From Candidatus Hydrogenedentota bacterium (GTDB taxonomy: Bacteria; Hydrogenedentota; Hydrogenedentia; Hydrogenedentales; SLHB01), in assembly GCA_963668025.2 (NCBI GenBank), contig CAXXTH010000017.1, positions 1,280,001-1,344,000 on the forward strand: a stretch of DNA of 64,000 nucleotides, given 5' to 3'. A model generated the notes under the pieces. It was not told the DNA's origin, did not search any database, and saw only the letters and a program-made list of their open reading frames with translations. Positions 4,369 through 57,500 of this stretch are shown here, piece by piece. A program made the translations under genes and the position numbers. The number at the start of each line of letters is the position of its first letter. The first letter of the stretch is position 1.

Positions 4369-4540
4369 GGATTGCTCCCCTCGTAGATAGTACATTTTCG
4401 CCCATCCCATCGGTCTTTGTAGATGAGATGGATGAAGTATGAGCAAGGATGCTCACGCAGTCAATCTTTTAGGCGGTTTTGAGCCATGAACACGCGAATA
4501 AACGAATCGCGTATAGCCGCAATCGAAGAGCCCGATTTTG

Positions 4541-4682
4541 CACCACCAAGAGTTCTAAGTGTTTCTACGTGTTTACTTGTCTGCTCTGCTTTAGATTTAT
4601 AAATATCAGACATATTTACTGGCTACCGCCGCAGCCTAATTCTTGCGAGCCTCTTTTTGTGTCTTTGTGACTTGGTGGTGAA
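4541..4682. repeat. Triple-subrepeat arm (reverse, 4653-4682) with a degenerate forward partner CACCACCAAG (4541-4550); about 142-bp empty unit
   Basis: CTTTTTGTGTCTTTGTGACTTGGTGGTGAA followed by CTCTCCGG matches the arms at 22516, 23316 and 25150. Confidence 0.7.
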
Positions 4683-4717
4683 CTCTCCGGAAAGATCGCC
4701 ATACGAGAGATAGTTAC

Positions 4718-12341: not shown

Positions 12342-14163
12342 GAGGCATTTGCGAAATAAAGAAAATCCGTATTGACAAGGGTTTACAAAGCGGCGGAATT
12401 GGCGCCTACCCCGGAGAATGCGGGGAAAGGGGCTTGGCGGGGGCATGAATAAGGATTTTTTGTGAAAAATCACCCCAAATGCCCTCGGCGAGCGGGAAAA
12501 GGCGTAACGTCTCCCGTGTGTGATTGTAGTATAGTTGACCACATAACCACGCACACACCAAGGAGACGTTTGCGATGGCCATTATACACCAAATGGGGTT
12601 GTTCTCGTGGAACCAGGTCGACGCGGCGTCGGATCTGGATCGGCTGAACCTGTTGCTGGCGGCGCTGCCGGATGAAGATTTGATGCGGGCGATGGAAGCC
12701 GAACGCAAGGGGCGGCGCGACGATTATCCTATCCGCGCGATGTGGAACAGCATACTGGCGGGGATCGTCTTCCAGCACGACGGCGTCGAAAGCCTGCGCC
12801 GCGAACTAGCCCGAAACGGGCAATTGCGCCAGTTGTGCGGATTCGACGTGTTGCGGGGCGCCAAGGCGGTCCCGCCCGAATGGGTGTACACGCGGTTCTT
12901 CGCCAGATTACTGCGCCACTGGAAAGAAGTGGACCGGATGTTCGACGCGCTCATCGTCCGGCTGATGGAACGCTTGCCGGATCTCGGGGTGCGTCTGGCC
13001 GTAGACTCGAAAGCCATCCAAACCCACGCCAAGCCTCCGCGCAAAGACGCGGTCCTGGAAAACGAAGAGCCGGACGGGCGGCGCGACCGCGACGCAGACT
13101 GGGGCACGAAAACCTACAAGGGCGTTCACAAGGACGGCACGCCCTGGGAGAAGGTCAAACGGTGGTTCGGCTACAAGCTGCACCTCATCGTGGACACGAA
13201 ATATGAATTGCCGCTGGGCTACGCGGTCACGAAAGCCAGCGCCAACGACTCGCCCTTTCTGCTGCCCCTCGTGGCGGCTCTCGACGCGCGCCACCCCGAA
13301 CTCGTCCAACGCGCCGAGTACCTCAGCGCCGACAAGGGCTATGATTCCGAAGCCAACAACAAGGGCCTCTTCGAGGAACATGAAATCCGGCCCATCGTGG
13401 ACATCCGGGCGACCTGGAAAGAAGAACCGGAACGGCCCCGCCCTTTATATCCCGAACGGGTAGACACGATCTTCCATACCGAACGAGGTGAAGTCCTCTG
13501 CCGGTGTCGTAACGGCGCCCCAAACGAACGCGACAACTATGATTCCATGGCCTACCAAGGATTCGAGCAAGATCGGGGAACCTTGAAATACCGTTGCCCA
13601 GCCAAGGCACGCGGGAGCGCCTGTACCCAGCAAGACCTCTGCAACCAAGGATGCCAGCCCGAACACGGACGGATTGTCCGCGTGCCCATCGCTATCGACC
13701 GGCGCATCTTTACCCCCCTGCCCCGCAGCGCCAAATCCTGGCGCCGCGAATACAAACACCGCACCGCCATCGAGCGAGTCAACAGCCGACTCGACGGCGC
13801 ATACGGATTCGAGCGCCACTACATCCGCGGTATGAAAAAGATGCGCGCCCGCACCGGATTAGCCCTCCTCGTCATGCTCGGCATGGCCCTGGGATGGCTC
13901 GAAGCCGGCCAGGCAGAACGCATGCGCTCGCTCCTCGGACAGCCCCGCGCCGCATAGATCACATCGAATCCGCACAAGCAATGATGGCCCGAATCAAGGG
14001 CAAACCATGCCCATTCGGGCCGCAAGGGTCCTACACGCGAACCTCCTGCATGATTTATTGCACCCGTAGCGGAGGCGTAATCCCATTGCCACAGGCGAAA
14101 ACCGCTCCGCGTGTGCCCGCACCGTCCGCGCGTTCGCAAACCACGCTATTTCGCAAATGCCTC
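12342..14163 (+). mobile_element. Insertion sequence, IS1182/IS5-like DDE, 1822 bp
   Basis: Perfect 17-bp TIRs GAGGCATTTGCGAAATA (12342-12358 and 14147-14163) and a 5-bp target duplication GGATA (12337-12341, 14164-14168). Confidence 0.93.
12575..13957 (+). CDS. DDE transposase
   Basis: GRRDDYP N-terminus, VDSK, WFGYKLHLIVD, ADKGYD, RTAIERVNS. Confidence 0.93.
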   Translation: MAIIHQMGLFSWNQVDAASDLDRLNLLLAALPDEDLMRAMEAERKGRRDDYPIRAMWNSILAGIVFQHDGVESLRRELARNGQLRQLCGFDVLRGAKAVPPEWVYTRFFARLLRHWKEVDRMFDALIVRLMERLPDLGVRLAVDSKAIQTHAKPPRKDAVLENEEPDGRRDRDADWGTKTYKGVHKDGTPWEKVKRWFGYKLHLIVDTKYELPLGYAVTKASANDSPFLLPLVAALDARHPELVQRAEYLSADKGYDSEANNKGLFEEHEIRPIVDIRATWKEEPERPRPLYPERVDTIFHTERGEVLCRCRNGAPNERDNYDSMAYQGFEQDRGTLKYRCPAKARGSACTQQDLCNQGCQPEHGRIVRVPIAIDRRIFTPLPRSAKSWRREYKHRTAIERVNSRLDGAYGFERHYIRGMKKMRARTGLALLVMLGMALGWLEAGQAERMRSLLGQPRAA

Positions 14164-18228: not shown

Positions 18229-20374
18229 AAACGCATACGCTGGCCGTATTGGCGCTGGCGTGCATGGCTGGTGCGTTCCCGGCATCCGCACTTTCAGGAA
18301 CGGTGCAAGGAGAGGATGGCGCGGAGGTTCCTTTCGCCTTCATCGGCTTGCTCTCGAAAGATTTCGCCCTTGACGCCCAAGCCGCTTCGGGCGCGGACGG
18401 GCAATTCCGCCTGGACGGCTCCGGCGGCTATCTCGTGGTGCAGCCCCCCGCCGCCGCCACGCCGGAAGGCATCGACGTATACGCCTATCAACCGCGCATG
18501 TACCAGCTCGATGGCGCGCCGGACACGGCGAACATTCAGCTCCCCGCCGCCGCGTGCCTGGTGATTCGCGCGTATGGGCCTGATGGCGCACTGCTGCGCT
18601 GGGAGGATTTCCAAAAACGCGGCGAATTCGGCGGCGTTTTCCTCTACGCCACGAACCTCAATGACGAAGCCGCCGAAGCCGTGTGCTGGCCCTGCCATGA
18701 TGCCGTTTCAAAAAAGGCCGGTTCGCCCCGCGAGAAAGGACTGCCCGCCCTCGTGGTGCGGCCCGGCGCGTCCTATGCCGTGCAGCCGCTTTTCTGGGAA
18801 GCCCCCGGCTACGGCAAAGTCCTCTTGCGCGCGGACAATGCCGGGCAAGGTTTCAAGCCAGGAAAAGCGGGCGAGGCCGTGTTCATCGACTTGAATCTCG
18901 AACTGGCCCGTACGGCAGTATATGCGCTCGAACGCCGCGCCAGCGCCTTCCCCGCATTGCGGTCGCTGGATATCGCCCTCGCGAATTACGAAATCGAGCA
19001 GGCCGCCGCACTGTCCGAGCCTGCCGCGCGCGCCGCAGCCGCCGACCGCGTCCTCGCCAAAGCGCTCGAGTTGCGCGATACCCTTGAACTGGAGCGGGCG
19101 CGCACCGCGATTCCTAAATTGCGCCAGGGGAGCATCGAGGTGCGCGTCGTGGACGCCAAAGGACAGCCCGTGTCCGGATGCACGGTGAAGATCGAACAGC
19201 AGACGCACGCCTTCCAGTTCGGCGTATTCGAGGGCGGACCGTATAACGCCCAGCCCTTTAAAACGGCCCGCGAAGCGGGCTTCAATCTGGCGACGACCCT
19301 CCCGGGCTGGGGATGGACCGATGCGCACAGCAAGACCCAATGGGACGCCCTCGACAAGACGCTGGGCCTCTCGGCGTTGCGCGCCCAGGGCTATACAGTG
19401 AAGGCCCACGGCGTGGTGTGGATGCAGGACTACGGCATTCTACCCAAAAAGGCCAAGGGAATGGCGAAGGCGGACCTGGCCGCCGCCGCGCTCGAGCACC
19501 AGCGCGGCATGCTCGATGCCTGGGCGGACTGCATCGGCTTGTGGGAGGCGGTGAACGAACCGGCCACGACCAACAACGCGGGTCTGTCCCGTGACGACAT
19601 GCTGGGCCTGCTGCGCGGCGCGGCGGACGCCATCAAGTCCCACGAGGGCCTGGCGTCCTTGGTGAACAGCCCCCATGAATCCGATTATGGCCGGAAATAC
19701 CTCTTCTTCGGCCTCGACAACCAACCGGTGAACAATTACCCCGAGACGTACTCCGTCTTTCTGAATCAGGCCCGCGCGGCGGGTGCGCTGGACAAGGTGG
19801 ATATCATCGGCCTCCAGTTCTACCCCGGCTACCGCTTCGCGGAGTACCTGGGCGGCTACCAAGGGCCGGGACATTGCCCCGGCTGGCTGGCGGATACGCT
19901 CGAACGGTATAACGCCTTCGGCAAGCCCATCCACATCACCGAGTTCTCCGCGCCATCGAGTTATGGCCCGGATTGGCATGCGGGCTATTGGCATGAGAAG
20001 TCCAGCCCGAAGACCCAGGCCGATTGGGGTCGAGGCGGTGTTCACGCTGGCCTTTGGCACGGAGGGCGTCGAGTCGGTCACCTACTGGGACATCACCGAC
20101 AAGAACCCGTCCGTACTGACCGGCGGCCTCCTCGACGCCAGCGGACAGCCCAAGCCCGCCTTTGACCGGGCGCGCGCCCTGCTCGATAGCTGGACGACCC
20201 ACGCCACCGCCATCACCGGCGAGGACGGCATAGCCCACGTGGACGCCTTCGCGGGAACCTATGCCGTGGAAGCCGCCACGCCGAAGGGCGAAAACAGGCA
20301 GCGCCACTATCGAGGTGAAGGCGCACGAAGCGGTGTCTTGTGAGGTCCGCTTGAAAGGGGAGGGCGCGCGATGA
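18225..20374 (+). CDS. Secreted GH10-like glycoside hydrolase, split by two +1 homopolymer frameshifts
   Basis: Signal peptide, KAHGVVW, WEAVNEP and PIHITEF. Removing one G at 20026-20029 and one A at 20291-20294 gives 716 codons, ending in an ATGA overlap with the next gene. Confidence 0.75.
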
Positions 20375-21535
20375 ATCCGGTCCGGGTGTTGTATCTGATT
20401 CGTACGTGGGCCCTCGGCGGGTCGCACACCATCATGTATTTGCTGCTCGAACACCTGCCCAAGGACCGCTTCGAGATCATTGTCGTGCCGTATGACTCCC
20501 ATTCCGGGGGCGACGAGGCCTTCATCGCCGGATGCGAGAAACGGGGCATCCCCGTGGCCCCCGAGCGCATCCCCTGGAAGTCGCGCTTCGCGTGGAACCA
20601 GGCCCGGCAGGCCGTGTCCGATTTGGTCGCGAAATACCACATCGACCTCATCCACACCCACGACCCCCATTCGGACGTGCTCATCGGCATCGGCCGCAAA
20701 CGCTGGCCCTGCGCCTGCGTGGCCAGCCCCTATGGCTGGTGGGAACGCCTCTTCCCCCTGCGGAGCCACGTCCATGTGATGCTCGAAAAATACTGGGCGC
20801 TGCCGCAATTCGAGCGTCTCATCACCGTCTCCGAGAACATGAAATCGAAGATCCTCGAGGGCTTCGCGGACGCCGAACGCATCCGCGTCGTCCACACGGG
20901 CCTCGACCTCGCGTTTCTCGACAAAGGCGCAGCACGCGAGGCCGTACGCGCCGAACTCGCCATCCCCGCCGAGGCATGCGTCGTGGGCACCGTGAGCCGC
21001 ATCTACATCGAGAAAGGCCACACCTACCTCCTCCAAGCCGCCGCCCAACTCGCTACTGCCCACCCGGACCTCCACGTCCTCATCGTGGGTGACGGCCCCC
21101 CTGCGCCCCGCCCTCGAAGCCGAGGCCGCCCAACGAGGCCTCGTGGGACGCGCCCATTTCACCGGCTTCTACCATGATCTCCCCGGCGCACTGCGCGCCA
21201 TGGATATCTTCGCCTTGCCCTCGATTCTCGACGAAGGCTTCCCCACGGCCGTGCTCGAGGCCCAAGCAGCGGGCCTGCCCGTGGTGGCGTCGAACGTCGG
21301 CGGCACCAGCGAGACCATGGACGTGGGCCGGACAGGCCTGCTCGTGCCGAAGAAAAACGCGACGGCCCTAGCGGACGCCTTAGGCGGCCTGGCGTCCGAC
21401 GCCGCGAAACGCCAAGAAATGGGCGAAGCAGCCCGCCAATGGATCGCCCGTTCCTTCTCCCTCGAAGACATGATCGCCCGCGTGAGCCAGACCTACGAAG
21501 AAGCGCTGGCATGCTACGCGCGGAGGAGCGAATGA
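20371..21535 (+). CDS. GT4 glycosyltransferase, split by a +1 frameshift in a C6 run
   Basis: EKGH, IVGDGP|LRPALE and DIFALPS..EGFPTAVLEA. Removing one C at 21096-21101 gives 388 codons. Confidence 0.85.
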
Positions 21536-21537
21536 TT

Positions 21538-21567
21538 TTCAACACAAAGACACGAAGACACAAGGAG
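21538..21567 (+). repeat. Triple-subrepeat arm, forward
   Basis: TTCAACACAAAGACACGAAGACACAAGGAG, 2 bp after the GT stop codon. Confidence 0.8.
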
Positions 21568-21632
21568 GCTCGGGGGAGTTCGATTGCTAGACCGGGATAA
21601 GTAGATCATCTAATAAAAGGAAAGCAAGTGTG

Positions 21633-22430
21633 ATGAACAAACCGTCAAAATCAAAAGCACTGGAGCGTTTACGCAAAGCATTGGAGCCCATTCCAAATTT
21701 TCAGAGGGTAAATCCTGGTTCTGCTGAGTTGAAAGAGTGGCAACGGAATACTAGGATCGCCATCAAGAAGGTGTTTATTGATGATGAGCATGTAAAGGAA
21801 TTTGATAGAATCCAATTTGATGCTTGGAGCAAAGAGCGAGCCATAAACCGAGAAGATATCTACCAAAGCGGCCTCATCTCTGCGTTATCCATGCTCCGAT
21901 CAATGATTCATGAGGTTGAAGATGATTGGCCCGACGAAGAGGACGAGACCGGAGCTTCGTCGCTTTGCAATACTGCCCCTAAGATAATAGATCAAGTCTT
22001 CATAATCCATGGACGAGATAACGAAGTCAAAGAGACCGTGGCGCGTTTCATCGAAAAACTCGGTCTAAAACCTGTTATTCTACATGAACAGCCCAGCCAA
22101 GGTCGTACTCTCATGGAAAAATTCGAGCAGCACGCCGAGGTCGGATATGCCATAGCCCTGTTGACTTCTGACGATGTAGGCGCGCTTCGAGGAGACGAGC
22201 AAAACTCTAAGCCTCGTGCAAGGCAAAATGTGATCTTTGAATTAGGGTACTTCATGGGACGCTTTGGCCGTGCTCGGGTTTGTGCATTAACGAAGGGTGA
22301 TCTGGAACTACCATCAGACTACGCAAATACCGTCTACGTTCCTTTTAATTCATCGGGAGGCTGGAAATTTGATCTCGTGAAAGATCTGAGGGCTGCTGGC
22401 TTCGAAATAGATGCAAACCTCGTGTTCTAG
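21633..22430 (+). CDS. TIR-like nucleotide-binding domain protein (Cap12/PycTIR-type TIR)
   Basis: VFIIHGRD, LHEQPSQGRTLMEKFE, LTSDD, RARQNVIFELGYF and ELPSD; AT-richer than the flanks. Confidence 0.9.
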   Translation: MNKPSKSKALERLRKALEPIPNFQRVNPGSAELKEWQRNTRIAIKKVFIDDEHVKEFDRIQFDAWSKERAINREDIYQSGLISALSMLRSMIHEVEDDWPDEEDETGASSLCNTAPKIIDQVFIIHGRDNEVKETVARFIEKLGLKPVILHEQPSQGRTLMEKFEQHAEVGYAIALLTSDDVGALRGDEQNSKPRARQNVIFELGYFMGRFGRARVCALTKGDLELPSDYANTVYVPFNSSGGWKFDLVKDLRAAGFEIDANLVF

Positions 22431-22515
22431 GAAATGGCTGCTAAGTAGTATCGAGCAACCATTTAGCGCCAAGAAAACTTAACAAAACACAGGATAGCCA
22501 AACAATCACTTATAA

Positions 22516-22586
22516 TTCGTTGTGTCTTCGTGTCTTAGTGGTGAATCTTCCGGATCTTCACCACCAAGACACGAAGGCACAAGGAT
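22516..22586. repeat. Back-to-back pair of triple-subrepeat arms around a TCCGGA core
   Basis: TTCGTTGTGTCTTCGTGTCTTAGTGGTGAA-tcttccggatc-TTCACCACCAAGACACGAAGGCACAAGGAT. Confidence 0.9.
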
Positions 22587-22607
22587 GCTCTCAAGGACTG
22601 GAGGTGT

Positions 22608-23174
22608 GTGATGGCCGATCAAGAGTCGAATGCCGATGCCGCTATCCCGGTGGATGTGTTGCGTGTAGCGTTGAGGGGCCAATACCACGCCGCCTTGGTG
22701 ATGTTGCAGCAGGCGGTCGAGCGGTGCCCCGAAGACCTGTGGAACAGCAGCGCCCACCCCAACCGGTTCTGGCACGTCGCCTACCACGCCCTGTTCTTTA
22801 CGCACCTCTACTTACAGCCCAATGACGCGGCGTTCCAAGCGTGGGAGTACCACCGTGAGGAATACCAGTTCCTGGGTAGGTTGCCCTGGCCGCCCCATGA
22901 CGCGCCCAAGATCGGCGAATCCTACGCCAAGGCGGAGGTGTTGGCGTATGGCCGATATTGCGCCGCCATGGTGAACGACGCCGTCGACCACCTGGACCTC
23001 TCCGCGCCGGACTGCGGTTTCTGGTGGTACCAGATGCCCAAGCTGGCCCACCAGATGGTGAACATCCGACACCTCCAACACCACGCGGGCCAACTGGCCG
23101 ACCGCCTCCGCGCCGCCGCCCACGTGGGGATCGATTGGATTGGCGCTGGCGATAAGGAAAAGCCAGGGGAATGA
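22608..23174 (+). CDS. DinB/YfiT family protein
   Basis: CPEDLW, FWHVAYHALF and NIRHLQHHAGQL metal-binding His pattern. Confidence 0.85.
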   Translation: MMADQESNADAAIPVDVLRVALRGQYHAALVMLQQAVERCPEDLWNSSAHPNRFWHVAYHALFFTHLYLQPNDAAFQAWEYHREEYQFLGRLPWPPHDAPKIGESYAKAEVLAYGRYCAAMVNDAVDHLDLSAPDCGFWWYQMPKLAHQMVNIRHLQHHAGQLADRLRAAAHVGIDWIGAGDKEKPGE

Positions 23175-23197
23175 CACGACGGGCATTTGCCGGATCT

Positions 23198-23345
23198 TTC
23201 ACCACCAAGGCACAAAGACACAAGGAGGTTGGCATGGATTGTATGCCTGCTATAGCTAAAGAATGCATCTGCTAATGACATATCCAAATAAAAACAGGCC
23301 AATAATTACTTATAACTCCTTGTGCCTTAGTGTCTTGGTGGTGGA
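23198..23345. repeat. 148-bp empty unit bounded by inverted triple-subrepeat arms
   Basis: Forward TTCACCACCAAGGCACAAAGACACAAGGAG (23198-23227, preceded by GCCGGATCT) and reverse CTCCTTGTGCCTTAGTGTCTTGGTGGTGGA (23316-23345). Confidence 0.85.
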
Positions 23346-23410
23346 AAATCCAGATGATTTGCCACTTCGTTATAGCATGTTTGAGGAAAGAAAAAACATT
23401 GGTACCGATT

Positions 23411-23486
23411 TCTCTGTGGTCCTCCGTGGCCTCTGTGGTGAAAATTCCGGATTCTGCACCACAGAGGCCACGGAGGATCACAGAGA
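23411..23486. repeat. Back-to-back pair of variant arms around a TCCGGA core
   Basis: TCTCTGTGGTCCTCCGTGGCCTCTGTGGTG-aaaattccggattctg-CACCACAGAGGCCACGGAGGATCACAGAGA; arms 29/30 complementary. Confidence 0.9.
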
Positions 23487-23605
23487 GAGCTTCAGCAAGG
23501 CAAGTTGGGCCGAAAATCACCAATAAATGCTCATGAAGAGGCTAGAAATCATATCCTAACCAGCGTATCGAATGGACGCATCTACGAACCGAGATAGGGT
23601 AGTAT

Positions 23606-24208
23606 ATGAAAGAAACGCACGGCGTCTATATCCGCGAGGCATACAAGGACTACACGCCGCCGTTTGACGCGGTGAAGGTGGTGGACCGGCTCCTGAACGG
23701 CATCCCGAAGAAGTATCTTGCGGGGCTTCACACCGTCGTCATCACGAACATGGGGCATATGTCCCGCGAGGAACGCCGGCGGAAGACAAAATCCCGAAAA
23801 CGTAAAGTCATCTTAAGCCAGCGTGGCGGGTCCTATTGTGAACAGTGGAAAGGGGAACCGGCTCATATCCAACTCATACTGGATAACATCATCGGACGAC
23901 GCCCAAAATGGTTGCTGCGTTTTCCTTATGTCCAAGATACTGCCCTTGCTACCGTGTTGTTCCATGAGATCGGCCATCATATTCACAAGACGCAAGCGCC
24001 GGAGAGCAGGGAACGGGAGAATGTCGCCGAAGATTGGTGCACGAAGCTGCTGGGTCTCTATATAGACAAACAGTACGGGTATCTACAGAAACCCATGAAC
24101 GCTGTGTTCTGGACAGCCATAAAGCCTATAATTTGGTTTCTAGAGAGACTAGTGAGAACCAGTAAACGTTCCCGTCACCATTCCCAGCGCCGCACACACG
24201 CGGGATAA
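23606..24208 (+). CDS. Hypothetical basic protein with HEXXH (zincin-like)
   Basis: TVLFHEIGHH followed by ERENVAEDW as a candidate third ligand. Confidence 0.7.
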   Translation: MKETHGVYIREAYKDYTPPFDAVKVVDRLLNGIPKKYLAGLHTVVITNMGHMSREERRRKTKSRKRKVILSQRGGSYCEQWKGEPAHIQLILDNIIGRRPKWLLRFPYVQDTALATVLFHEIGHHIHKTQAPESRERENVAEDWCTKLLGLYIDKQYGYLQKPMNAVFWTAIKPIIWFLERLVRTSKRSRHHSQRRTHAG

Positions 24209-24250
24209 CGAGATTCTAGAACACGGAATAAAACAAAGGAGTTCAATGAG

Positions 24251-25033
24251 ATGAAGACCATTTTACTGATGGCCATTATGATGCTCGCCGCCGTGTCTCA
24301 TGCGGAGGACATGCAGAAATACCTGCACGACACGCGCGAGATGGTGAAACAGAAAAAATACGAGGAAGCCCTCAATCGCTGTATTTGGTTTCACGAGCAC
24401 GCACTCGAACATGATCCAGGGATGTACGGAGTCCGCTTGTCGTTTGCGCTGTCGGACTGGAAAGAACTGGGAGATGTCTATCCCCCCGCCAAAACGGCCC
24501 TCATTGAAACGCGTGATCGCAAGACAAAACTGATAGAGGAAGACAAGGGTAGCTTCTACTTTTTTGCCGATGTGGTTGCTCTGAATAGAATCCTTGGTGA
24601 GGCTCAGAAGACCGTTGCGCTCTTTGAACTCGTGGACCGTACGCAGCCCGAGTCAGCGAAGGAGTATTGGAACGTGGCGGAGGACGCAGTGATCTCCGCT
24701 AAGCGCTATGACCTCGTCCGCAAGTATATTGGAAATCCCGTGCGCGAGTTTCTGGAAGTCAAGGCTAGGTATGATGAGGAGAAAGCGTCGTACGATGACC
24801 CACGGATGGGAGGAGAGCACTTCAAGGCATGGAACGAAGACCATTTTGTCGAAGAGAGCGTCAAGCTGATCGGGGTCGCTCTTGCGCTGGACGATAAGAA
24901 GGCCGCCCAGGAGATCCAGCAACAGGCATTGGCCATACTCGATGATTATCGCCTCCGTGACGCCATCCCTAAAGAACAAGCTGAAACAGCGCCACCCAGC
25001 ACAGAAGGCGGCGGGCAGAAAACCACGCCTTAA
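24251..25033 (+). CDS. Hypothetical secreted alpha-helical protein
   Basis: AAGGAG RBS, signal peptide ending in SHA, 260 aa. Confidence 0.8.
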   Translation: MKTILLMAIMMLAAVSHAEDMQKYLHDTREMVKQKKYEEALNRCIWFHEHALEHDPGMYGVRLSFALSDWKELGDVYPPAKTALIETRDRKTKLIEEDKGSFYFFADVVALNRILGEAQKTVALFELVDRTQPESAKEYWNVAEDAVISAKRYDLVRKYIGNPVREFLEVKARYDEEKASYDDPRMGGEHFKAWNEDHFVEESVKLIGVALALDDKKAAQEIQQQALAILDDYRLRDAIPKEQAETAPPSTEGGGQKTTP

Positions 25034-25057
25034 TCGCCCCATGAGGTTTAGCAATCA

Positions 25058-25179
25058 CTCACGCGAAGGCGCGAAGACGCGAAGATGCGCGCAAGGATGC
25101 CGTTATAGAGCGCAACTCATAAGGGGCGCAAGCAAACAATCCCGTATAACTCCTTGTGTCTTAGTGCCTTGGTGGTGAA
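25058..25179. repeat. Variant forward arm (25058-25084) and reverse arm (25150-25179)
   Basis: CTCACGCGAAGGCGCGAAGACGCGAAG, then CTCCTTGTGTCTTAGTGCCTTGGTGGTGAA followed by TAATCCGG, 14 bp before the GT start. Confidence 0.85.
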
Positions 25180-25193
25180 TAATCCGGTTCATC

Positions 25194-26303
25194 ATGACGA
25201 AACAACGCCCACGCATCGCGATTGACGCCCACGCCTTGGGCACCCAGGCGGGGGGCAACGAGACGTTCGTGCGCCAATTGCTCGAAGGCCTCCGAGCCGT
25301 GTCGCCCGATACGGACATCGTGGCGCTGGTCCATACCGGCGCGCCCGAGGGCCTTACGTCGGGTTTTCCGGCATACCCCATGCAGTCCCGCTCGTCGTGG
25401 CTGCGGGTGCCTTTCGGGCTGCCCGCCGCCGTCCGGGCCACCCATGCGGACCTGCTCCATGTGCAATACATCGCCCCGCCGGTTTGCCCCGTCCCTTTCG
25501 TGGTCACGCTGCACGACATGGTATGGAAGCGGTTCCCCGAGACGCTCCGCACGGTGGACCGGATGCGCCTGGCGGCGCTCGTGCCGGGCACGCTACGCCG
25601 GGCGGCGCGCGTGTTCGTGGTGAGCGAGGCGATGAAGCGGGAAGCCATGGCGTTCTACGGCGTTCCCGAGTCCAAGATCGACGTGGTCTACAACTCCGTG
25701 GACCCCTTGTACCGCCCGGTGGCGGACCCCGAGCGCCTGGCGGCTGTGCGGGCGCGATACGGCCTGCCGGAACGCTATGTGGCTTACATGGGCCAGCTCC
25801 AGCCGCGCAAGAACGTCCTCCGCCTTGCCGAGGCCTTCGCCCGCTTGCAGGGCGAAGCGCCCCATGCGCTGGTGTTCATCGGCAAACAAAGCTGGCGCTA
25901 CCGGGAGATCGGCGAAGGCCTCGAACGGCTCCATCTCGGCGAACGCCTCCGCTTCACGGGATACGTGGAACAAGAAGACCTGCCCGCCCTGCTCTCCGCA
26001 GCGGATGTCTTTGCCTATCTATCACTCTACGAAGGCTTTGGCCTTCCTGTAGCGGAGGCCATGGCTTGTGGGACGCCCGTCCTCACCTCGACGGACCCGG
26101 CGTTAAGTGAAGTGGCGGGGGGCGCCGCTCTCACGTGCGACCCCATGAGCGTGGACGACATTGAAGCGGCCTTGCGCCGCTTGCTGCTGGATGAAGGGCT
26201 TCGTAAAACGCTGGCCTTGGCTGGCCCTGAACGGGCAAAATGTTTCGCACGCGAATCCATGGCCCGGGCCGCTCTCGCCGGGTATGAAAACGCCCTCGCC
26301 TGA
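25194..26303 (+). CDS. GT4 glycosyltransferase (MtfB/WbdB-like)
   Basis: VVTLHD, QPRKN, FTGYV, SLYEGFGLPVAEAMACGTPV. Confidence 0.92.
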   Translation: MTKQRPRIAIDAHALGTQAGGNETFVRQLLEGLRAVSPDTDIVALVHTGAPEGLTSGFPAYPMQSRSSWLRVPFGLPAAVRATHADLLHVQYIAPPVCPVPFVVTLHDMVWKRFPETLRTVDRMRLAALVPGTLRRAARVFVVSEAMKREAMAFYGVPESKIDVVYNSVDPLYRPVADPERLAAVRARYGLPERYVAYMGQLQPRKNVLRLAEAFARLQGEAPHALVFIGKQSWRYREIGEGLERLHLGERLRFTGYVEQEDLPALLSAADVFAYLSLYEGFGLPVAEAMACGTPVLTSTDPALSEVAGGAALTCDPMSVDDIEAALRRLLLDEGLRKTLALAGPERAKCFARESMARAALAGYENALA

Positions 26304-26687
26304 TATCGCACATATGCCACTTCTAATACTTCCTCGATCTGTTGAATATACAATATATTGTGGTTGGGTAATGTTTATAGGTTATAGCAACATCTTAGCC
26401 CGGGTTTTTGGTTATTTAGTGTTATTATTTATTGTATTTCGGGTATAGCGAAGCATAAAATATAGAATACATCGGTATTATTATATGGGTATTCGGCGAA
26501 GTGGCGACAATTCTGTGAAATACTAGACACAAACACTGGCCATTTACGGTGAAAAACGGTTCCCTGCGCACCCATTCAGAGGTATGGATAACGTCAGTCA
26601 CCACAATATTTTGTTGCATTCATTATTGACACCTGATAGAATATGCGCAGGATAAGTAGTGAGAACCAGGTAGAGTGTTGGTAAGCG

Positions 26688-31582: not shown

Positions 31583-33067
31583 CAGGAGTTCCCCCAGAAA
31601 AAGGGGTGTCATAACCGCAACTACTTATGCTGAATTGACTTACCTCTCTACAGAAGTATCCTTGGCGGATTTTGGGGGATCTTTCGTCAAGTTGAAACGG
31701 CCTCCCTGGTGCGAGAGAATCTTGGTGTGAAAAGCCACAACTCCAACGCAATCAAGGAGGACCGCCGATGAATGCTACCAGAGTTGCTCGAAACTTGCGA
31801 GTTCGCATAGGGCGATTTTCGGGGGATCTCTCGAAAGGCCTTTGTGTAGCGGCCCAACGCTTCGTTTCCCAGATGGTGTACGGCATTCAGGCTTCCGAAT
31901 CGGTGCTGCTCACGGAGATAGGCCGAACCCTGGGGGAGGACATTCCCCTGCGCAAAACGCACAACCGGCAATCGAGGAATTTGCAGCGGCCCGAGTTGGA
32001 AGAAACCATCCAGGAAAACGTGCTGCGCATGGCATCGAGCCGGGTGGCGCAGGACACGCTGCTCCTTATTGACCCTTCGGATCTTTCCAAGAAGTACGCC
32101 CAAAAGATGGAGTATCTGGCCACGGTGCACGACGGCAGCGCGCACGATTTGGCCCAGGGGTATTGGACGCTTCACATCGCCGGGTGCGGGGTGGATTCCG
32201 ATGGCATGATTCCATTGTATCAGCGGTTATGGTCCGCCGATGCGCCGGGCTTTACCAGCGAGAATGACGAGATTTTGCGCGGGATAGATGCGGTGGCGGC
32301 GCACGTGGGCCGCCGCGGCCTGTGGGTCATGGACCGTGGCGGGGACCGCATCAATTTATTTGATGCCCTTCTGGAGCGCCAGCTACGGTTTCTTTTCCGC
32401 TTGGTGGGCAACCGGAATGTGCTTCACAAAGGACAGTTGATGCTAGCCGAGAAAGCCGCGAACCATTGCCCCATGATGCACTCCCAAACCATAGCGCGCA
32501 TCGAAGATGGAGAAGAGAAGGTGTACACCTTGCGTTTTGGATATTGCGGAGTCCGCCTGCCCGAACGTGCAGAACCCCTGCATTTACTGGTAATTCACGG
32601 CTTTGGGGCCAAACCCCTCCTGCTGCTGACCAATGAGCCTCTGTCCAAAAGCTACAAATGCCTATGGCGCATGGTCCGCGCCTACCTCAAACGATGGAGT
32701 ATCGAAGAAACCATTCGCTACGCCAAGACCTGCTATGACCTCGATAACGTCCGGGTGCTGAACTACCAAGGCCTGCAAAACTTAATGCCGCTGGTGTTGG
32801 CCGCGATGTATTTCGCGGCCTGCGTGCTCGACAACGATTCCCGCTTACGGGTGATGGCTGGTTTTGTAGAAAAGGCCGCCAAACGCCTCTTCGGCATCCC
32901 TGATTTCAAGTACTACGCCCTCGCCGACGGATTACGAGCGCTCCTGACCCGATGCCCAGGCGCCCCTGTGACGCCCAAACAACTCTCCAAATCGTCCCAG
33001 ATGACCCTGTTTGCTTTCGATTCCCCATGAAAGCAGTTTCCTCTGTAAATTCTGGGGGGAACTCCTG
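31583..33067 (+). mobile_element. IS4-family insertion sequence, about 1485 bp
   Basis: TIRs CAGGAGTTCCCCCAGAA (31583-31599) and TTCTGGGGGGAACTCCTG (33050-33067, one extra G); 9-bp target duplication GCTCAGAAA (31574-31582, 33068-33076). Confidence 0.93.
31768..33030 (+). CDS. IS4-family DDE transposase
   Basis: LIDPSD, MDRGGD, and the Y-x2-R-x3-E-x6-K motif YLKRWSIEETIRYAK. Confidence 0.93.
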   Translation: MNATRVARNLRVRIGRFSGDLSKGLCVAAQRFVSQMVYGIQASESVLLTEIGRTLGEDIPLRKTHNRQSRNLQRPELEETIQENVLRMASSRVAQDTLLLIDPSDLSKKYAQKMEYLATVHDGSAHDLAQGYWTLHIAGCGVDSDGMIPLYQRLWSADAPGFTSENDEILRGIDAVAAHVGRRGLWVMDRGGDRINLFDALLERQLRFLFRLVGNRNVLHKGQLMLAEKAANHCPMMHSQTIARIEDGEEKVYTLRFGYCGVRLPERAEPLHLLVIHGFGAKPLLLLTNEPLSKSYKCLWRMVRAYLKRWSIEETIRYAKTCYDLDNVRVLNYQGLQNLMPLVLAAMYFAACVLDNDSRLRVMAGFVEKAAKRLFGIPDFKYYALADGLRALLTRCPGAPVTPKQLSKSSQMTLFAFDSP

Positions 33068-33145: not shown

Positions 33146-33221
33146 GGGGATGTAGCTCAGTTGGGAGAGCGCATGACTGGCAGTCATGAGGTCAGGGGTT
33201 CGATCCCCCTCATCTCCACCA
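33146..33221 (+). tRNA. tRNA-Ala (GGC)
   Basis: 76-nt cloverleaf, anticodon arm CATGA-CTGGCAG-TCATG, GTTCGATCC T-loop, G3:U70 pair, encoded CCA. Confidence 0.98.
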
Positions 33222-48016: not shown

Positions 48017-48173
48017 GTTGAAACGGTCTTGAGATTGCGGAGGTGATGCAAAGGGATGAGCGCGGCTTCACACGGGGAGGAAGGTAAAAATCCATTTTTT
48101 TAGGCATTTACGGCAGTTTGTTTGGATAAATTTAGAATCATACAGAAACCATACAACGATGGAGGAAGGTACT

Positions 48174-49256
48174 ATGCACAGGAGAGGATTCACATTAATT
48201 GAGCTGTTGGTTGTGATTGCCATCATCGCGATACTTGCGGCAATCCTGCTGCCGGCTTTGGCGCGGGCTCGTGAGGCGGCGCGCCGCGCTTCTTGCGCGA
48301 GCAATCTGAAGCAGTTTGGTATTATTTTCAAGATGTATTCCAATGAGAATAAGAGCAAGTTCCCGCCGATGGCGACGAAGTCGCGGCTGGATGTCAATTC
48401 GGGCATCTTCGGATACATGCTGGGTTTCGATGGCGCGGAGTTGTATCCCGATTATTGGAATGATCCCTCGATCGTACGCTGCCCTTCGGATGCGTCAGGC
48501 GATTATGTCGGCAAAGATGTGTTCAAGATGGAATCCGATTATAACGCGATGATTGACAGGGTGGCTAAATCGACTACAGGCACTGCGGACGCGAAAAAGC
48601 TTTGCTTGGAATCCCTTCTGTCGGTTCCGATTTCTTATTGCTATAGCGGTTTCTTGGCGATGACCGAGTCCCAAATCGCGGATTATGCCTGGTCAAAAGC
48701 GAACTTCTGGTATCCGCCATATACCAAGAATATTATGGGAACCACTTCTTGCGTGTTTTCGAATGTGGATGTATCCGCTGTGGATTCGTCAGCGTGCGGC
48801 TTAAAGGTCTACACCTGTTCTTGCACGCTGCCGGACACATTGAAGTCGCTGTATAAGCCTCTTGGATTTAAAGACAACGACGGCGTGACCAATCTTCCCG
48901 ATAGTTATTATGCGCTCAAGGAAGGCGTCGAGCGTTTCATGATCACCGACATCAACAATCCCGCCGCTGGATCAAATGGCCAAAGCACCATGCCGGTCAT
49001 GTGGGATGCCTATGTGAACAACGCCACGCTGGCGGGAGCCAGCGATGCGGGTGTCGCGCGCTTCAATCACGTGCCGAGCGGTTCCAATGTGCTATACATG
49101 GATGGCCATGTGAGTTTTGTCCGGTTGAATGCCGCATCGCCGATTGGCTCGGAATTCTCAAATAAGTCCATAGCGGGAAGCACATCTGGAACCGGCCAGA
49201 TTGGCAACCAATCGTATTGGCAATGGACGCTGTCCTATATGGGCGGCATGGGTTGA
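48174..49256 (+). CDS. DUF1559 prepilin-type N-methylation / H-X9-DG domain protein
   Basis: [14 protein letters not shown]...[15 protein letters not shown] and [17 protein letters not shown]. Confidence 0.93.
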
Positions 49257-56108: not shown

Positions 56109-57500
56109 ATGAGCGCGGGATCAGGAGAATATAAAGATTCAGGCCAAGCAAGCGCAGGCTATTTGTACTTCCTGTCCATTACAGCAGCAATGGGCGGTTT
56201 TTTGTTTGGATATGACTTGAACATCATTACGGGTTCGATGCTCTATTTGCAGGATTATTTCCACATTGAGAGCGCCGAGCTGGGCTTATTAACCAGCAGC
56301 GCCGTGTTTGGCTGCATTTTCGGGCCAATAGTAGCAGTGTGGATGGCCGATTCGCTGGGGCGGCGCAATTCGTTGTATGTAGCGGGCGTCCTGTTCTTCA
56401 TCTCGGCCGTGTGGAGCGCATTAGCGACTACCATACCTACATTCAATATTGCGCGGGCTATTGGCGGTATCGGAGTCGGCATTGCCACGGGCGTATCGCC
56501 GATGTATATCGCGGAGATTTCGCCGGCCCGGCTTCGCGGGAGAATGGTTACAATAAACCAGTTGTCCATTGTCGTGGGCATTGTGTTATCCGTGGTGGTG
56601 GCGCTTTGGCTTTCGTATGGCGGCCATTGGCGCTGGATGTTCGCTTCCGAATGTGTTCCCATCATCCTTTTAATGGTCGGCCTGATGTTCATCCCACGCA
56701 GCCCCCGCTGGCTTGCATCTAAAGGCAAAGACACTGAAGCCATGAAGGTGCTCACTTTTATTAATGGCGCGGAGCAGGCGGCGAAAGAAATAAAAGAGAT
56801 CAAATCCGAACTCGGACAAGAAGTGGGCTCGTTCAAGGAACTCCTTCAGCCGGGTATTCGCTATGCCTTGGTGGTGGCCTGCATTCTCATGATCTTTCAA
56901 CAGATCAATGGCGTGAATATGATACTGCTCTATGCCTCGAAGATATTAGTCGAAGCGGGCATTGGCAGCATATCGAACGCCCTGCTCAATTCGTTGTACG
57001 TCTATTTCTTGATTTTGCTTTGCACCGTGTTTTCTTTTTATATCGTAGCGAAATTCCCACGCCGCAAGATCATCATGGTGGGAGTCACGGGCATGGCCGT
57101 TGGCCACCTGTGCATGGCCTTTGCATTTTATAGCCAGATCTCCCCGTATGTAAACTTGCTGGCGATGCTGATCGCCACGGGCTCCTTCACGCTCACATTT
57201 GCTCCTCTTGGCTGGGTGGTGGTTTCTGAGATTTTCCCCAACCGCGTGCGCGGCAAATGCATGGGCATTGTGACATTCTTCCTCTTCACCTCCTCGTTCT
57301 TCTGCTCCTGGGCATTTCCTAATATCACCGATTATTTTGAAAAGCAATTTGGCACGCAAGCAGGCGCGTACATTTTCTTCGCCTGTATTTGCATGGCATG
57401 CGTGGGATTTGTCTGGAAATATATCCCCGAGACCAAAGACCTAACTTTAGAAGAGATCGGCCAGTTCTGGCTCAACCGTGGCCGGAATAGCGGGAAGTAA
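56109..57500 (+). CDS. Sugar porter family MFS transporter
   Basis: GGFLFGYD, DSLGRR, YIAEISP..RGR, PRSPRWL, QQINGVN, SEIFP, PETK. Confidence 0.95.
   Translation: MSAGSGEYKDSGQASAGYLYFLSITAAMGGFLFGYDLNIITGSMLYLQDYFHIESAELGLLTSSAVFGCIFGPIVAVWMADSLGRRNSLYVAGVLFFISAVWSALATTIPTFNIARAIGGIGVGIATGVSPMYIAEISPARLRGRMVTINQLSIVVGIVLSVVVALWLSYGGHWRWMFASECVPIILLMVGLMFIPRSPRWLASKGKDTEAMKVLTFINGAEQAAKEIKEIKSELGQEVGSFKELLQPGIRYALVVACILMIFQQINGVNMILLYASKILVEAGIGSISNALLNSLYVYFLILLCTVFSFYIVAKFPRRKIIMVGVTGMAVGHLCMAFAFYSQISPYVNLLAMLIATGSFTLTFAPLGWVVVSEIFPNRVRGKCMGIVTFFLFTSSFFCSWAFPNITDYFEKQFGTQAGAYIFFACICMACVGFVWKYIPETKDLTLEEIGQFWLNRGRNSGK

Follow-up and report, generated by a model that had tools for sequence, protein, structure and literature searches.

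Inverted-repeat arms shared across bacterial phyla enclose GxxExxY genes and, in a Hydrogenedentota polysaccharide operon, four other genes

Bacterial genes can lie between short repeats in several described ways. The attC sites of integron cassettes are inverse core sites (RYYYAAC ... GTTRRRY) 50-150 nt apart; Acinetobacter pdif modules hold genes as cassettes between recombination sites, and the Xer dif site is 28 nt long, with two 11-nt arms around a 6-nt centre. The seg and mob genes of phage T4 are free-standing homing endonuclease genes, which are not known to be flanked by inverted repeats or to leave gene-less copies of repeats behind. Intervening sequences of 23S rRNA carry a small open reading frame (ORF) between inverted repeats and lie within a transcription unit, and repetitive extragenic palindromes (REPs) are lineage-specific. 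Here we describe a block of repeats and genes in a 64,000-nt stretch of the genome of a Candidatus Hydrogenedentota bacterium (contig CAXXTH010000017.1 of assembly GCA_963668025.2, positions 1,280,001 to 1,344,000; this whole stretch is called the window). In the block, short inverted-repeat arms punctuate four genes lying between two family 4 glycosyltransferase (GT4) genes. The arms belong to an inverted-repeat element family that crosses bacterial phyla, whose full form encloses a gene for a GxxExxY protein (a predicted nuclease) and whose commonest form is gene-less.

The arms resemble the doublets of REPs that form hairpins (REPINs) and their REP-associated tyrosine transposases (RAYTs; PMC3116915, PMC3733652, PMC5581495) in being short hairpin-forming doublets, intergenic and present in many copies, and in accompanying a small nuclease-type gene that is flanked by inverted repeats; target duplications are absent in both. 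A REP is a palindrome of 20-40 nt that bears a GTAG or CGTC tag at one of its ends (PMC3733652). The arms, in contrast, have no such tag and end in TTCACCAC or TTCACGCG. They consist of 8-9-nt tandem sub-repeats, are near-identical in sequence across phyla and, in this block, have genes other than the enzyme between them. Their putative enzyme is of the PD-(D/E)xK type (RecB/Cas4-like), whereas RAYT is an HUH Y1 transposase, and no RAYT (HUH Y1) gene occurs among 134 ORFs adjoining arms or in the window.

With integron cassettes, and with clusters of attC sites lacking integron-integrases (CALIN), the block shares promoter-less, co-oriented, compositionally uneven genes separated by imperfect palindromes, a fixed chromosomal place and the absence of a recombinase inside the array. 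It differs in being closed on both sides by inverted half-sites, and the gene associated with its arms elsewhere encodes a predicted nuclease. An attC or integron identity was rejected, as it had been in the initial annotation of this DNA: there are 0 pairs of core sites at 50-150 nt on either strand of 21500-25250, and no recombinase, IntI included, among the window ORFs scanned against Pfam and NCBIfam. GxxExxY genes recall the phage homing endonuclease genes in being small nuclease-type genes fitted precisely between conserved genes of the same orientation (fabD/fabG; radA/next gene), but they have flanking inverted repeats and gene-less copies. The likeness to 23S rRNA intervening sequences lies in an inverted-repeat-bounded small ORF inside a transcription unit. 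The four-helix-bundle protein of those sequences (PF05635) is called uncharacterised (10.1101/2024.02.27.582315), and no PF05635/TIGR02436 protein is found among the 134 ORFs adjoining arms. The arms fail the tested defining features of attC, of REP/REPIN and of DDE-type miniature inverted-repeat transposable elements (MITEs).

In a literature search that left figures, supplements and database comments outside its scope, we found no description of the arms or of a function for GxxExxY. The arm system is, on the evidence available, uncharacterised. The initial annotation had called it undescribed, which is right for the arms in the literature searched and wrong for the protein family, already named in NCBIfam and Pfam. 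A curated comment on the family may also refer to repeats beside GxxExxY genes.

Arms across bacterial phyla and the gene between them

Operationally, an arm is TTCAC(C/G) followed by at least two to three tandem 8-9-nt sub-repeats of the form C[AG]C-N-purine run, occurring in inverted pairs (forward arms are labelled F, reverse arms R). The nine arms of the block, the consensus of 120 arm loci collected elsewhere and the arms beside GxxExxY genes found through the protein all fit this definition. The loci come from a species-representative genome collection, in which a 24-nt arm pattern, TTCACCACNAAGNCACNAAGNCAC, matched at least 120 stretches; the 120 loci amount to 858,689 nt in total. By record title, the matches (at least 120) span at least 15 phylum-level groups. 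Among the matches listed, Acidobacteriota and Pseudomonadota contribute 25 loci each, Planctomycetota 15, Chloroflexota 14, Verrucomicrobiota 11, Cyanobacteriota 5, and Gemmatimonadota and Bacteroidota 4 each, followed by a dozen other labels and one archaeal metagenome-assembled genome (MAG); these phylum labels are inferred from record names, and single MAG matches may reflect binning errors. Arms also occur in cultured isolates (Fischerella, Azospirillum, Thiomicrorhabdus, Salinisphaera), so an assembly artefact is excluded. At least 15 genomes are represented by more than one locus. The archaeal case is a lone arm (L024 4699-4722) in a contig binned as a Methanotrichaceae archaeon, beside what looks by eye like a large Cas3-like helicase ORF; either the arms cross between domains here, or the contig was misbinned.

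A profile made from seven window arms detects 231 arm matches in the 120 loci, and a self-complement search of the loci yields additional partner arms. The dominant form is an F arm followed by an R arm within 56-255 bp, mostly with no gene between them (64 pairs within 260 bp); the opposite polarity, R then F within 40 nt, is seen in 7 loci, mainly cyanobacterial. Arms avoid genes: although crude ORFs of 150 aa or more cover 77% of the bases, only 31 of the 145 strong arms fall within one. The inverted repeat normally terminates at TTCACCAC or 0-3 nt past it, and the number of sub-repeats ranges from 2 to at least 6. Direct repeats of k = 3-6 at offsets 0-4 from the ends of 69 units occur 0-2 times, the same as in shuffles. 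Arms within a unit average 86% complementarity, and at variable positions they agree more often (0.61) than arms of different units (0.41), a level that none of 2000 shuffles reaches; common descent would suffice to explain this agreement, without selection for pairing.

The outward extension GGAT(T)-TTCACCAC of the window's arms is found in Verrucomicrobiota loci as well, which, together with markers such as a DUF1559 protein of the window (see below), would point to a host in the Planctomycetota-Verrucomicrobiota group. In Acetobacteraceae a lineage-specific end extension is common to a full copy (L042) and to empty ones (L036, L066, L002). One Planctomycetota MAG has a unit of ~230 nt on four contigs (L013, L022, L030, L033), in tandem in L022, with a conserved non-coding interior of ~170 nt that could encode a small RNA. 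In cyanobacteria an asymmetric 72-nt R-then-F hairpin, conserved in Pelatocladus/Fischerella (L092 3250-4600, L059, L034, L106), brackets a thiolase gene in opposite orientations, much as the ends of a composite element would.

Units with 390-490 nt between their arms have an interior filled by one ORF. A GxxExxY gene (TIGR04256 / PF13366, ~125 aa) lies inside the arms in 7 of the 120 loci (L042, L073, L100, L102, L020, L035, L077), with TIGR04256 matches at E down to 5e-43; the L020 copy is frameshifted. Among 134 small ORFs adjoining arms GxxExxY is the only recurrent family (6 hits), all others being single occurrences, and none of the 134 belongs to the four-helix-bundle (PF05635/TIGR02436), HUH or transposase families. 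Sampling in the reverse direction, a tblastn search with one arm-enclosed GxxExxY protein gave six plasmid or chromid records (L121-L126). Four of the six are armed, on both sides of the gene in L122, L123 and L124 and on one side, by an arm hairpin, in L121; L125 and L126 have repeats of other kinds beside the gene. The initial annotation had tentatively mentioned similar repeats beside GxxExxY genes, and from both directions of sampling these prove to be the same arms. It had also named three families that might be enriched between arms, of which GxxExxY recurs beside the arms and the four-helix-bundle and HUH families were not found there. The variant arms of the protein-seeded records are of the CACAGAGG type in Bacteroides (L123) and of the CGCGAAGG type in Sphingomonas (L122), and both variants are present in the window: the type found at the junction palindrome J2 (see below) flanks the Bacteroides gene, and that found at 25055-25098 lies upstream of the Sphingomonas gene.

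The orientation of GxxExxY genes is that of the downstream gene in 6 of the 7 arm-seeded loci and that of both neighbours in all 5 annotated protein-seeded records (L121 comes without annotation). Neighbour pairs in those records, which enclose the gene tightly, include fabD/fabG, radA with the gene after it, and ade with a mannose-1-phosphate guanylyltransferase gene. The inner end of the arm, AAGGAG(G), is located 5-45 nt ahead of the GxxExxY start codons. In some annotated GxxExxY proteins, such as that of L100, the arm has been translated as an N-terminal extension. No GxxExxY match was found in a phage collection.

The protein family is very large, with at least 7966 clusters (90% identity) at E 1e-10 among 8000 candidates scored, and members from different phyla are 60-70% identical. 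In 32 sequences E38, D78, E88, K90, Q102 and Y106 are invariant or nearly so, so that the catalytic set E...D...ExK...QxxxY of a predicted nuclease is intact; we take this pattern to be the PD-(D/E)xK motifs plus the QxxxY helix, as in RecB/Cas4-type nucleases. By sequence, GxxExxY has no match in the PDB. An AlphaFold2 model has a mean predicted local distance difference test score (pLDDT) of 94.1 and a predicted template-modelling score (pTM) of 0.87. A survey of the superfamily assigns PDDEXK_3 no known function and notes that it was transferred repeatedly between divisions (PMC3424549). The link between this family and a conserved cross-phylum inverted repeat offers a testable role for it.

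The block between two glycosyltransferase genes

The features of the block, with its two flanking genes, are as follows.

20371..21535, plus strand: upstream GT4 glycosyltransferase, in two frames (20371-21177 and 21089-21535), with Pfam Glyco_transf_4 and Glycos_transf_1 split over the two ORFs
21538..21567, plus strand: outer left F arm, TTCAACAC, with three 8-nt sub-repeats and inner end AAGGAG
21630..22430, plus strand: cargo 1, TIR-domain protein, G+C 0.46, PF10137 at E 6.2e-37
22517-22545, minus strand: R arm at the right end of unit 1, adjoined by the 22-nt subterminal motif at 22498-22519 (whole end 22498..22545)
22557 onward, plus strand: F arm, the right half of junction palindrome J1
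22517..22585: junction palindrome J1, made of R arm, 11-nt centre TCTTCCGGATC and F arm, 90% complementary
22608..23174, plus strand: cargo 2, putative DinB-like protein, G+C 0.63
23190..23353: empty unit, with F arm 23198-23227, 88-nt interior and R arm 23316-23345, 86% complementary over 36 nt
Interior of the empty unit: perfect Shine-Dalgarno sequence leading into a 13-codon mini-ORF; 22-nt right-end motif at 23298-23319
23411-23448 and 23449-23486: junction palindrome J2, R arm then F arm, of a variant type (CACAGAGGCCACGGAGGA), 89% complementary over 38 nt
23606..24208, plus strand: cargo 3, family-less HExxH-motif protein, G+C 0.53, with FHEIGHH in its sequence
24251..25033, plus strand: cargo 4, signal-peptide-like N-terminus (judged by eye), G+C 0.53
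25055..25098, plus strand: variant F-type arm with CGCGAAGR sub-repeats
25132..25187, minus strand: outer right end, with the 22-nt motif at 25132-25153, R arm 25150-25179 and outward TAATCCGG
25194..26303, plus strand: downstream GT4 glycosyltransferase, intact, Pfam Glyco_transf_4 and Glycos_transf_1

All nine arms listed in the initial annotation are present, and far above chance. A 16-nt arm pattern, TTCACCACCAAGRCAC, allowing up to 3 mismatches, has 8 matches in the window (six within the block, one at 4667-4682 and one weak, with 3 mismatches, at 56863), whereas 100 shuffles averaged 0.69 matches and never exceeded 3. A generic expression for the sub-repeats finds 8 arms, all in 21543-25174, and none across 20 mononucleotide shuffles. 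Pairwise complementarity among the window's arms is 81-96% over 27-38 nt; the outer right end, for example, is 92% complementary over 38 nt to 23190-23227. From outside to inside an arm reads roughly CCGGA, 3-5 nt, TTCACCAC, three 8-nt sub-repeats (NAAGRCAC) and an AAGGAG end, so that the outward extension brings the arm length to ~38-40 nt; the outward CCGG is retained in 7 of 10 arm ends checked. The 22-nt subterminal motif, CCAAACAATCACTTATAAYTCS, precedes three reverse arms and has no other copy in the window or in 127 fetched loci, which argues for one backbone with different cargo.

J1 and J2, each the meeting point of an R arm and the F arm after it, form near-perfect palindromes with the centre TCCGGA (in J2 the arm cores are the R arm at 23411-23440 and the F arm from 23457). 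As DNA, J1 folds at -26.2 kcal/mol (z -8.8), J2 at -37.9 kcal/mol (z -11.4) and the empty unit with a z of -5.6. The two halves of a palindrome are closer to each other than to the other end of their own cassette, most clearly in J2. The empty unit measures 148 bp from arm to arm (23198-23345); a blastn search with it against plasmids gave no match, although a low-complexity filter may have masked the query. Within it, at 23222-23273, a perfect AAGGAGG is followed after 5 nt by the 13-codon ORF, which may be the relic of an earlier cargo start. A 7-nt repeat, ATTTGCC, near 23185 and 23362 was rejected as a target duplication and treated as chance because its offsets from the two ends are unequal.

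The block sits exactly in the space between its neighbours. The upstream GT4 gene runs to the last base of its TGA stop at 21535 and is followed, after 2 nt, by the first arm (from 21538); on the other side the last arm ends at 25179, 14 nt before the ATG of the downstream GT4 gene at 25194, precisely as the initial annotation had it. Its further remark that neither gene is disrupted holds for the insertion point, but the upstream GT4 is itself split over two frames, at a run of seven C (~21094-21101), which could reflect a sequencing error, a pseudogene or a slippage-prone tract. Both GT4 genes belong to a polysaccharide operon with flippase-like and Wzy-like genes upstream. A short intergenic spacer with no target duplication in its flanks is also where other members of the arm family are located.

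The arms punctuate four genes of one orientation and uneven composition, and the one empty unit, as had been reported: G+C is 0.42-0.55 over most of the block, 0.63 over the DinB-like ORF and 0.62-0.70 in the flanks; set beside the single cargo genes (0.46, 0.63, 0.53 and 0.53), the flanks measure 0.65-0.66. The first cargo gene, previously noted as TIR, is in addition a full-length match to PDC-S35 (PADLOC PDLC05005, E 1.3e-79, residues 7-265 of 266) and so, by similarity, a candidate single-gene anti-phage defence; homologues of this TIR protein are found in 1152 plasmid records, and we found no description of PDC-S35 in the literature searched. The DinB identity proposed for the second gene has split evidence. 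In the Atlas its look-alike score is 0.96 and 10 of the 10 best hits carrying a family are DinB_2, which we treat as a lead and as weak evidence; against Pfam it matches DinB_2 (PF12867) across the whole profile at E 0.062 and 14.2 bits, below the gathering cut-off of 24.8. The HEXXH motif noted in the third gene is plainly visible; Pfam and NCBIfam scans give this protein no match, and its Atlas neighbours (0.97) are hypothetical-protein clusters. The fourth protein, putatively secreted to judge by its N-terminus, as the initial annotation had it, falls into no family in the same scans, its sole match being TPR_MalT at E 0.013. The block shows no excess of promoter-like or terminator-like sites.

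Pfam and NCBIfam scans of the ORFs find no integrase or transposase in the block, as had been stated, and no HUH protein was found in the window. The window does contain two DDE transposase genes, at 12575-13957 (IS1182/IS5-like) and 31768-33030 (IS4/IS701-like), 7.6 kb and 6.6 kb from the block and with no arms adjoining either. Integration at a tRNA or tmRNA gene was rejected, the only such gene in the window being a tRNA-Ala at 33146.

How the block may have arisen

We read the block as a cluster of three or four units, one of them empty, inserted between two operon genes; in the fuller count three units bear cargo besides the empty one. That these are a cluster of non-autonomous GxxExxY-element units, in which other cargo has replaced the nuclease gene, we regard as somewhat better than an even bet. 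The complete element is an arm, a GxxExxY (PDDEXK_3) gene and an inverted arm, and the units of the window would share a backbone of arm, AAGGAG, cargo, 22-nt right-end motif and arm, the nuclease gene having been swapped for other cargo while the arms and the 22-nt right end were kept. A GxxExxY nuclease encoded elsewhere in the genome would move or exchange the units in trans, recognising the iterated 8-9-nt sub-repeats and cutting at the arms or at extruded hairpins. Insertion would then be finished by break repair or by recombination between arm-bearing sites, not by DDE strand transfer, so that whatever DNA two arms enclose could end up as a copy in a further arm-bearing site. The cargo genes would lack promoters of their own and be transcribed by read-through from the polysaccharide operon.

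A mobile or recombinogenic element of a non-DDE kind is suggested because the units are multicopy and intergenic, full and empty copies share end extensions, target duplications are absent, and a filled and an empty site can be paired. In Sphingomonas parapaucimobilis the order is fabD-[arm-GxxExxY-arm]-fabG, with the ribosome-binding site of fabG kept after the right arm; in S. paeninsulae a spacer of 32 nt lies between fabD and fabG. The presence/absence difference breaks at the arms. The initial annotation is thus partly supported. Its arm family and its GxxExxY link are borne out, while gene capture and mobilisation in trans by the nuclease are what we infer from them.

A wider proposal is that the arms represent an undescribed pan-bacterial mobile class, driven by a minimal RecB/Cas4-like GxxExxY nuclease, which colonises spacers inside operons and serves as well as an integrase-free platform for gene capture and arraying, here having assembled a TIR defence-type gene and three foreign genes in a polysaccharide operon. 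As one joint claim this is tentative, and we would sooner expect some part of it to fail. The tie between the GxxExxY family and the arms would add an enzyme class to the known routes of bacterial DNA movement, and it would account for thousands of unusual hairpins between genes and of short ORFs annotated as "hypothetical" in genomes and MAGs. The window shows that genes other than GxxExxY, a candidate anti-phage gene among them, can lie between arms within a housekeeping operon; should the arms mediate exchange, cassette arrays would have a second route, one that needs no integrase.

Several observations weigh against a cluster of nuclease-mobilised units. No ORF of the window matches GxxExxY, as the initial annotation had also found, and the units are therefore at best non-autonomous derivatives. 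Among the 120 loci there is no relative of this genome, no homologue of the cargo and no comparable array with several cargo genes other than GxxExxY (0 of 120). In J2 the right arm of cassette 2 (DinB) is paired with the left arm of cassette 3 (HExxH), so that these two cassettes have unlike ends, which a simple transposon with terminal inverted repeats does not predict; in some cases the palindromes, and not the gene-flanking pairs, may be the inherited unit. R-then-F hairpins are free-standing in cyanobacteria, and both polarities occur alone. The arms on either side of the thiolase gene of L092, like those around an amidohydrolase gene of L117, are probably parts of two separate hairpins, so housekeeping genes can lie between arms without capture. 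The Sphingomonas species are only 74% identical, and the exact ends of the element are unreadable in that pair for this reason. Finally, GxxExxY is a putative arm-binding nuclease, and the PDB structures nearest to its modelled fold (Cas4, alkaline and lambda-type exonucleases, the nuclease domains of AddAB/AdnAB, and archaeal Hjc resolvases) are weak matches, the best at E 7e-3 and TM ~0.45 and none at E <=0.001.

The best surviving alternative is that the arms act in RNA. In the operon transcript the arms on both sides of an inserted gene would form one long stem by base-pairing, as a signal for processing or insulation, the sub-repeats would be ribosome-loading sites, GxxExxY would be merely the commonest passenger, and spread would be by ordinary recombination after horizontal transfer. 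RNase III, for comparison, excises intervening sequences from 23S rRNA. Co-orientation with the host operon (6 of 7 for the downstream gene, 5 of 5 annotated records for both sides, and all four genes of the window) speaks for such a role, as do the AAGGAG(G) ahead of GxxExxY starts, the high stability of the J1 and J2 stems, and the fact that the arms add neither terminators nor promoters. The sub-repeats are purine-rich and Shine-Dalgarno-like (AAGGA, GAGGA, AGAGG) in the window's arms and in L042, L073 and L122-L124, the innermost one often reading AAGGAGG, and the outer CACCACC resembles the anti-Shine-Dalgarno end of 16S rRNA. Stem mismatches, however, show no strand-specific G-U bias (45 with G-U on the top strand, 59 with A-C on the top strand and 90 others, with both kinds in 20 units), the majority of units have no gene to serve, and structure alone, at 86% mean complementarity, would not keep a 24-nt sequence constant across phyla. 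A known RNA family was rejected: at gathering thresholds Rfam returns only a tRNA for the window, and a permissive search gives sub-threshold microRNA-hairpin matches on the palindromes only, generic hairpin noise. We consider the RNA-level reading unlikely as the whole account, and keep it alive as a rival or an additional function because the sub-repeats are Shine-Dalgarno-like and co-orientation with host operons is strict.

Less probable still is that the block consists of site-specific recombination cassettes, the R-centre-F palindromes being sites for an unlinked tyrosine or Xer-type recombinase and the outer arms hybrid half-sites. The two junction palindromes, whose halves match each other best, the co-oriented and promoter-less units, the missing target duplications in the 69 units tested and the outward CCGG all suit this idea, and ftsK lies 1.5 kb downstream of the block, which may be coincidence. 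It is opposed by the lack of a recombinase among the scanned window ORFs, by the absence of attC core-site pairs and by the arm-linked gene, which is of nuclease and not of recombinase type. The spacing between the conserved halves GTGGTGAA and TTCACCAC at the junctions is 11-16 nt, whereas Xer, Cre and Flp-type cores are 6-8 nt. Elsewhere, moreover, the F-loop-R form dominates, with 64 pairs against 7 of the R-F kind.

That the arms are simply the ends of a DDE insertion sequence (IS), an ordinary MITE family with genes trapped between independent insertions, is very improbable: small size, terminal inverted repeats, many intergenic copies per genome, gene-less short copies outnumbering gene-bearing ones, a lineage-specific terminal extension and the two DDE transposase genes of the window all recall MITEs, but the 69 units have no target-site duplications of 3-6 nt, neither of those transposase genes has adjoining arms, no transposase lies between arms in the 120 loci, the arm sequence crosses phyla, and the sole associated gene, instead of a DDE, serine or tyrosine transposase, is the ~125-aa PD-(D/E)xK gene GxxExxY. 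An IS that shares these ends and encodes a transposase, the parent expected of such MITEs, was seen neither in the window nor in the 120 loci.

Other features of the window

One further unit lies outside the block:

4531..4692: degenerate unit of ~160 bp, with arms ten and eleven, lying apart in an unrelated intergenic spacer

With nhmmer, its right arm (4692-4654, minus strand) matches at E 1.7e-9 and its left arm (4531-4551, plus strand) at E 0.071, and its fold has a z of only -1.5. The unit is flanked by a GH36/melibiase-like gene and a hydroxylamine reductase gene; the profile match of the latter ORF begins at position 136, and its start is possibly miscalled or truncated. Between the downstream GT4 gene and ftsK there is a 385-nt AT-rich gap (26304-26687, G+C ~0.40) in which no ORF or repeat is recognised. 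At 48159-49256 the window encodes a protein with DUF1559 and an N-terminal methylation motif.

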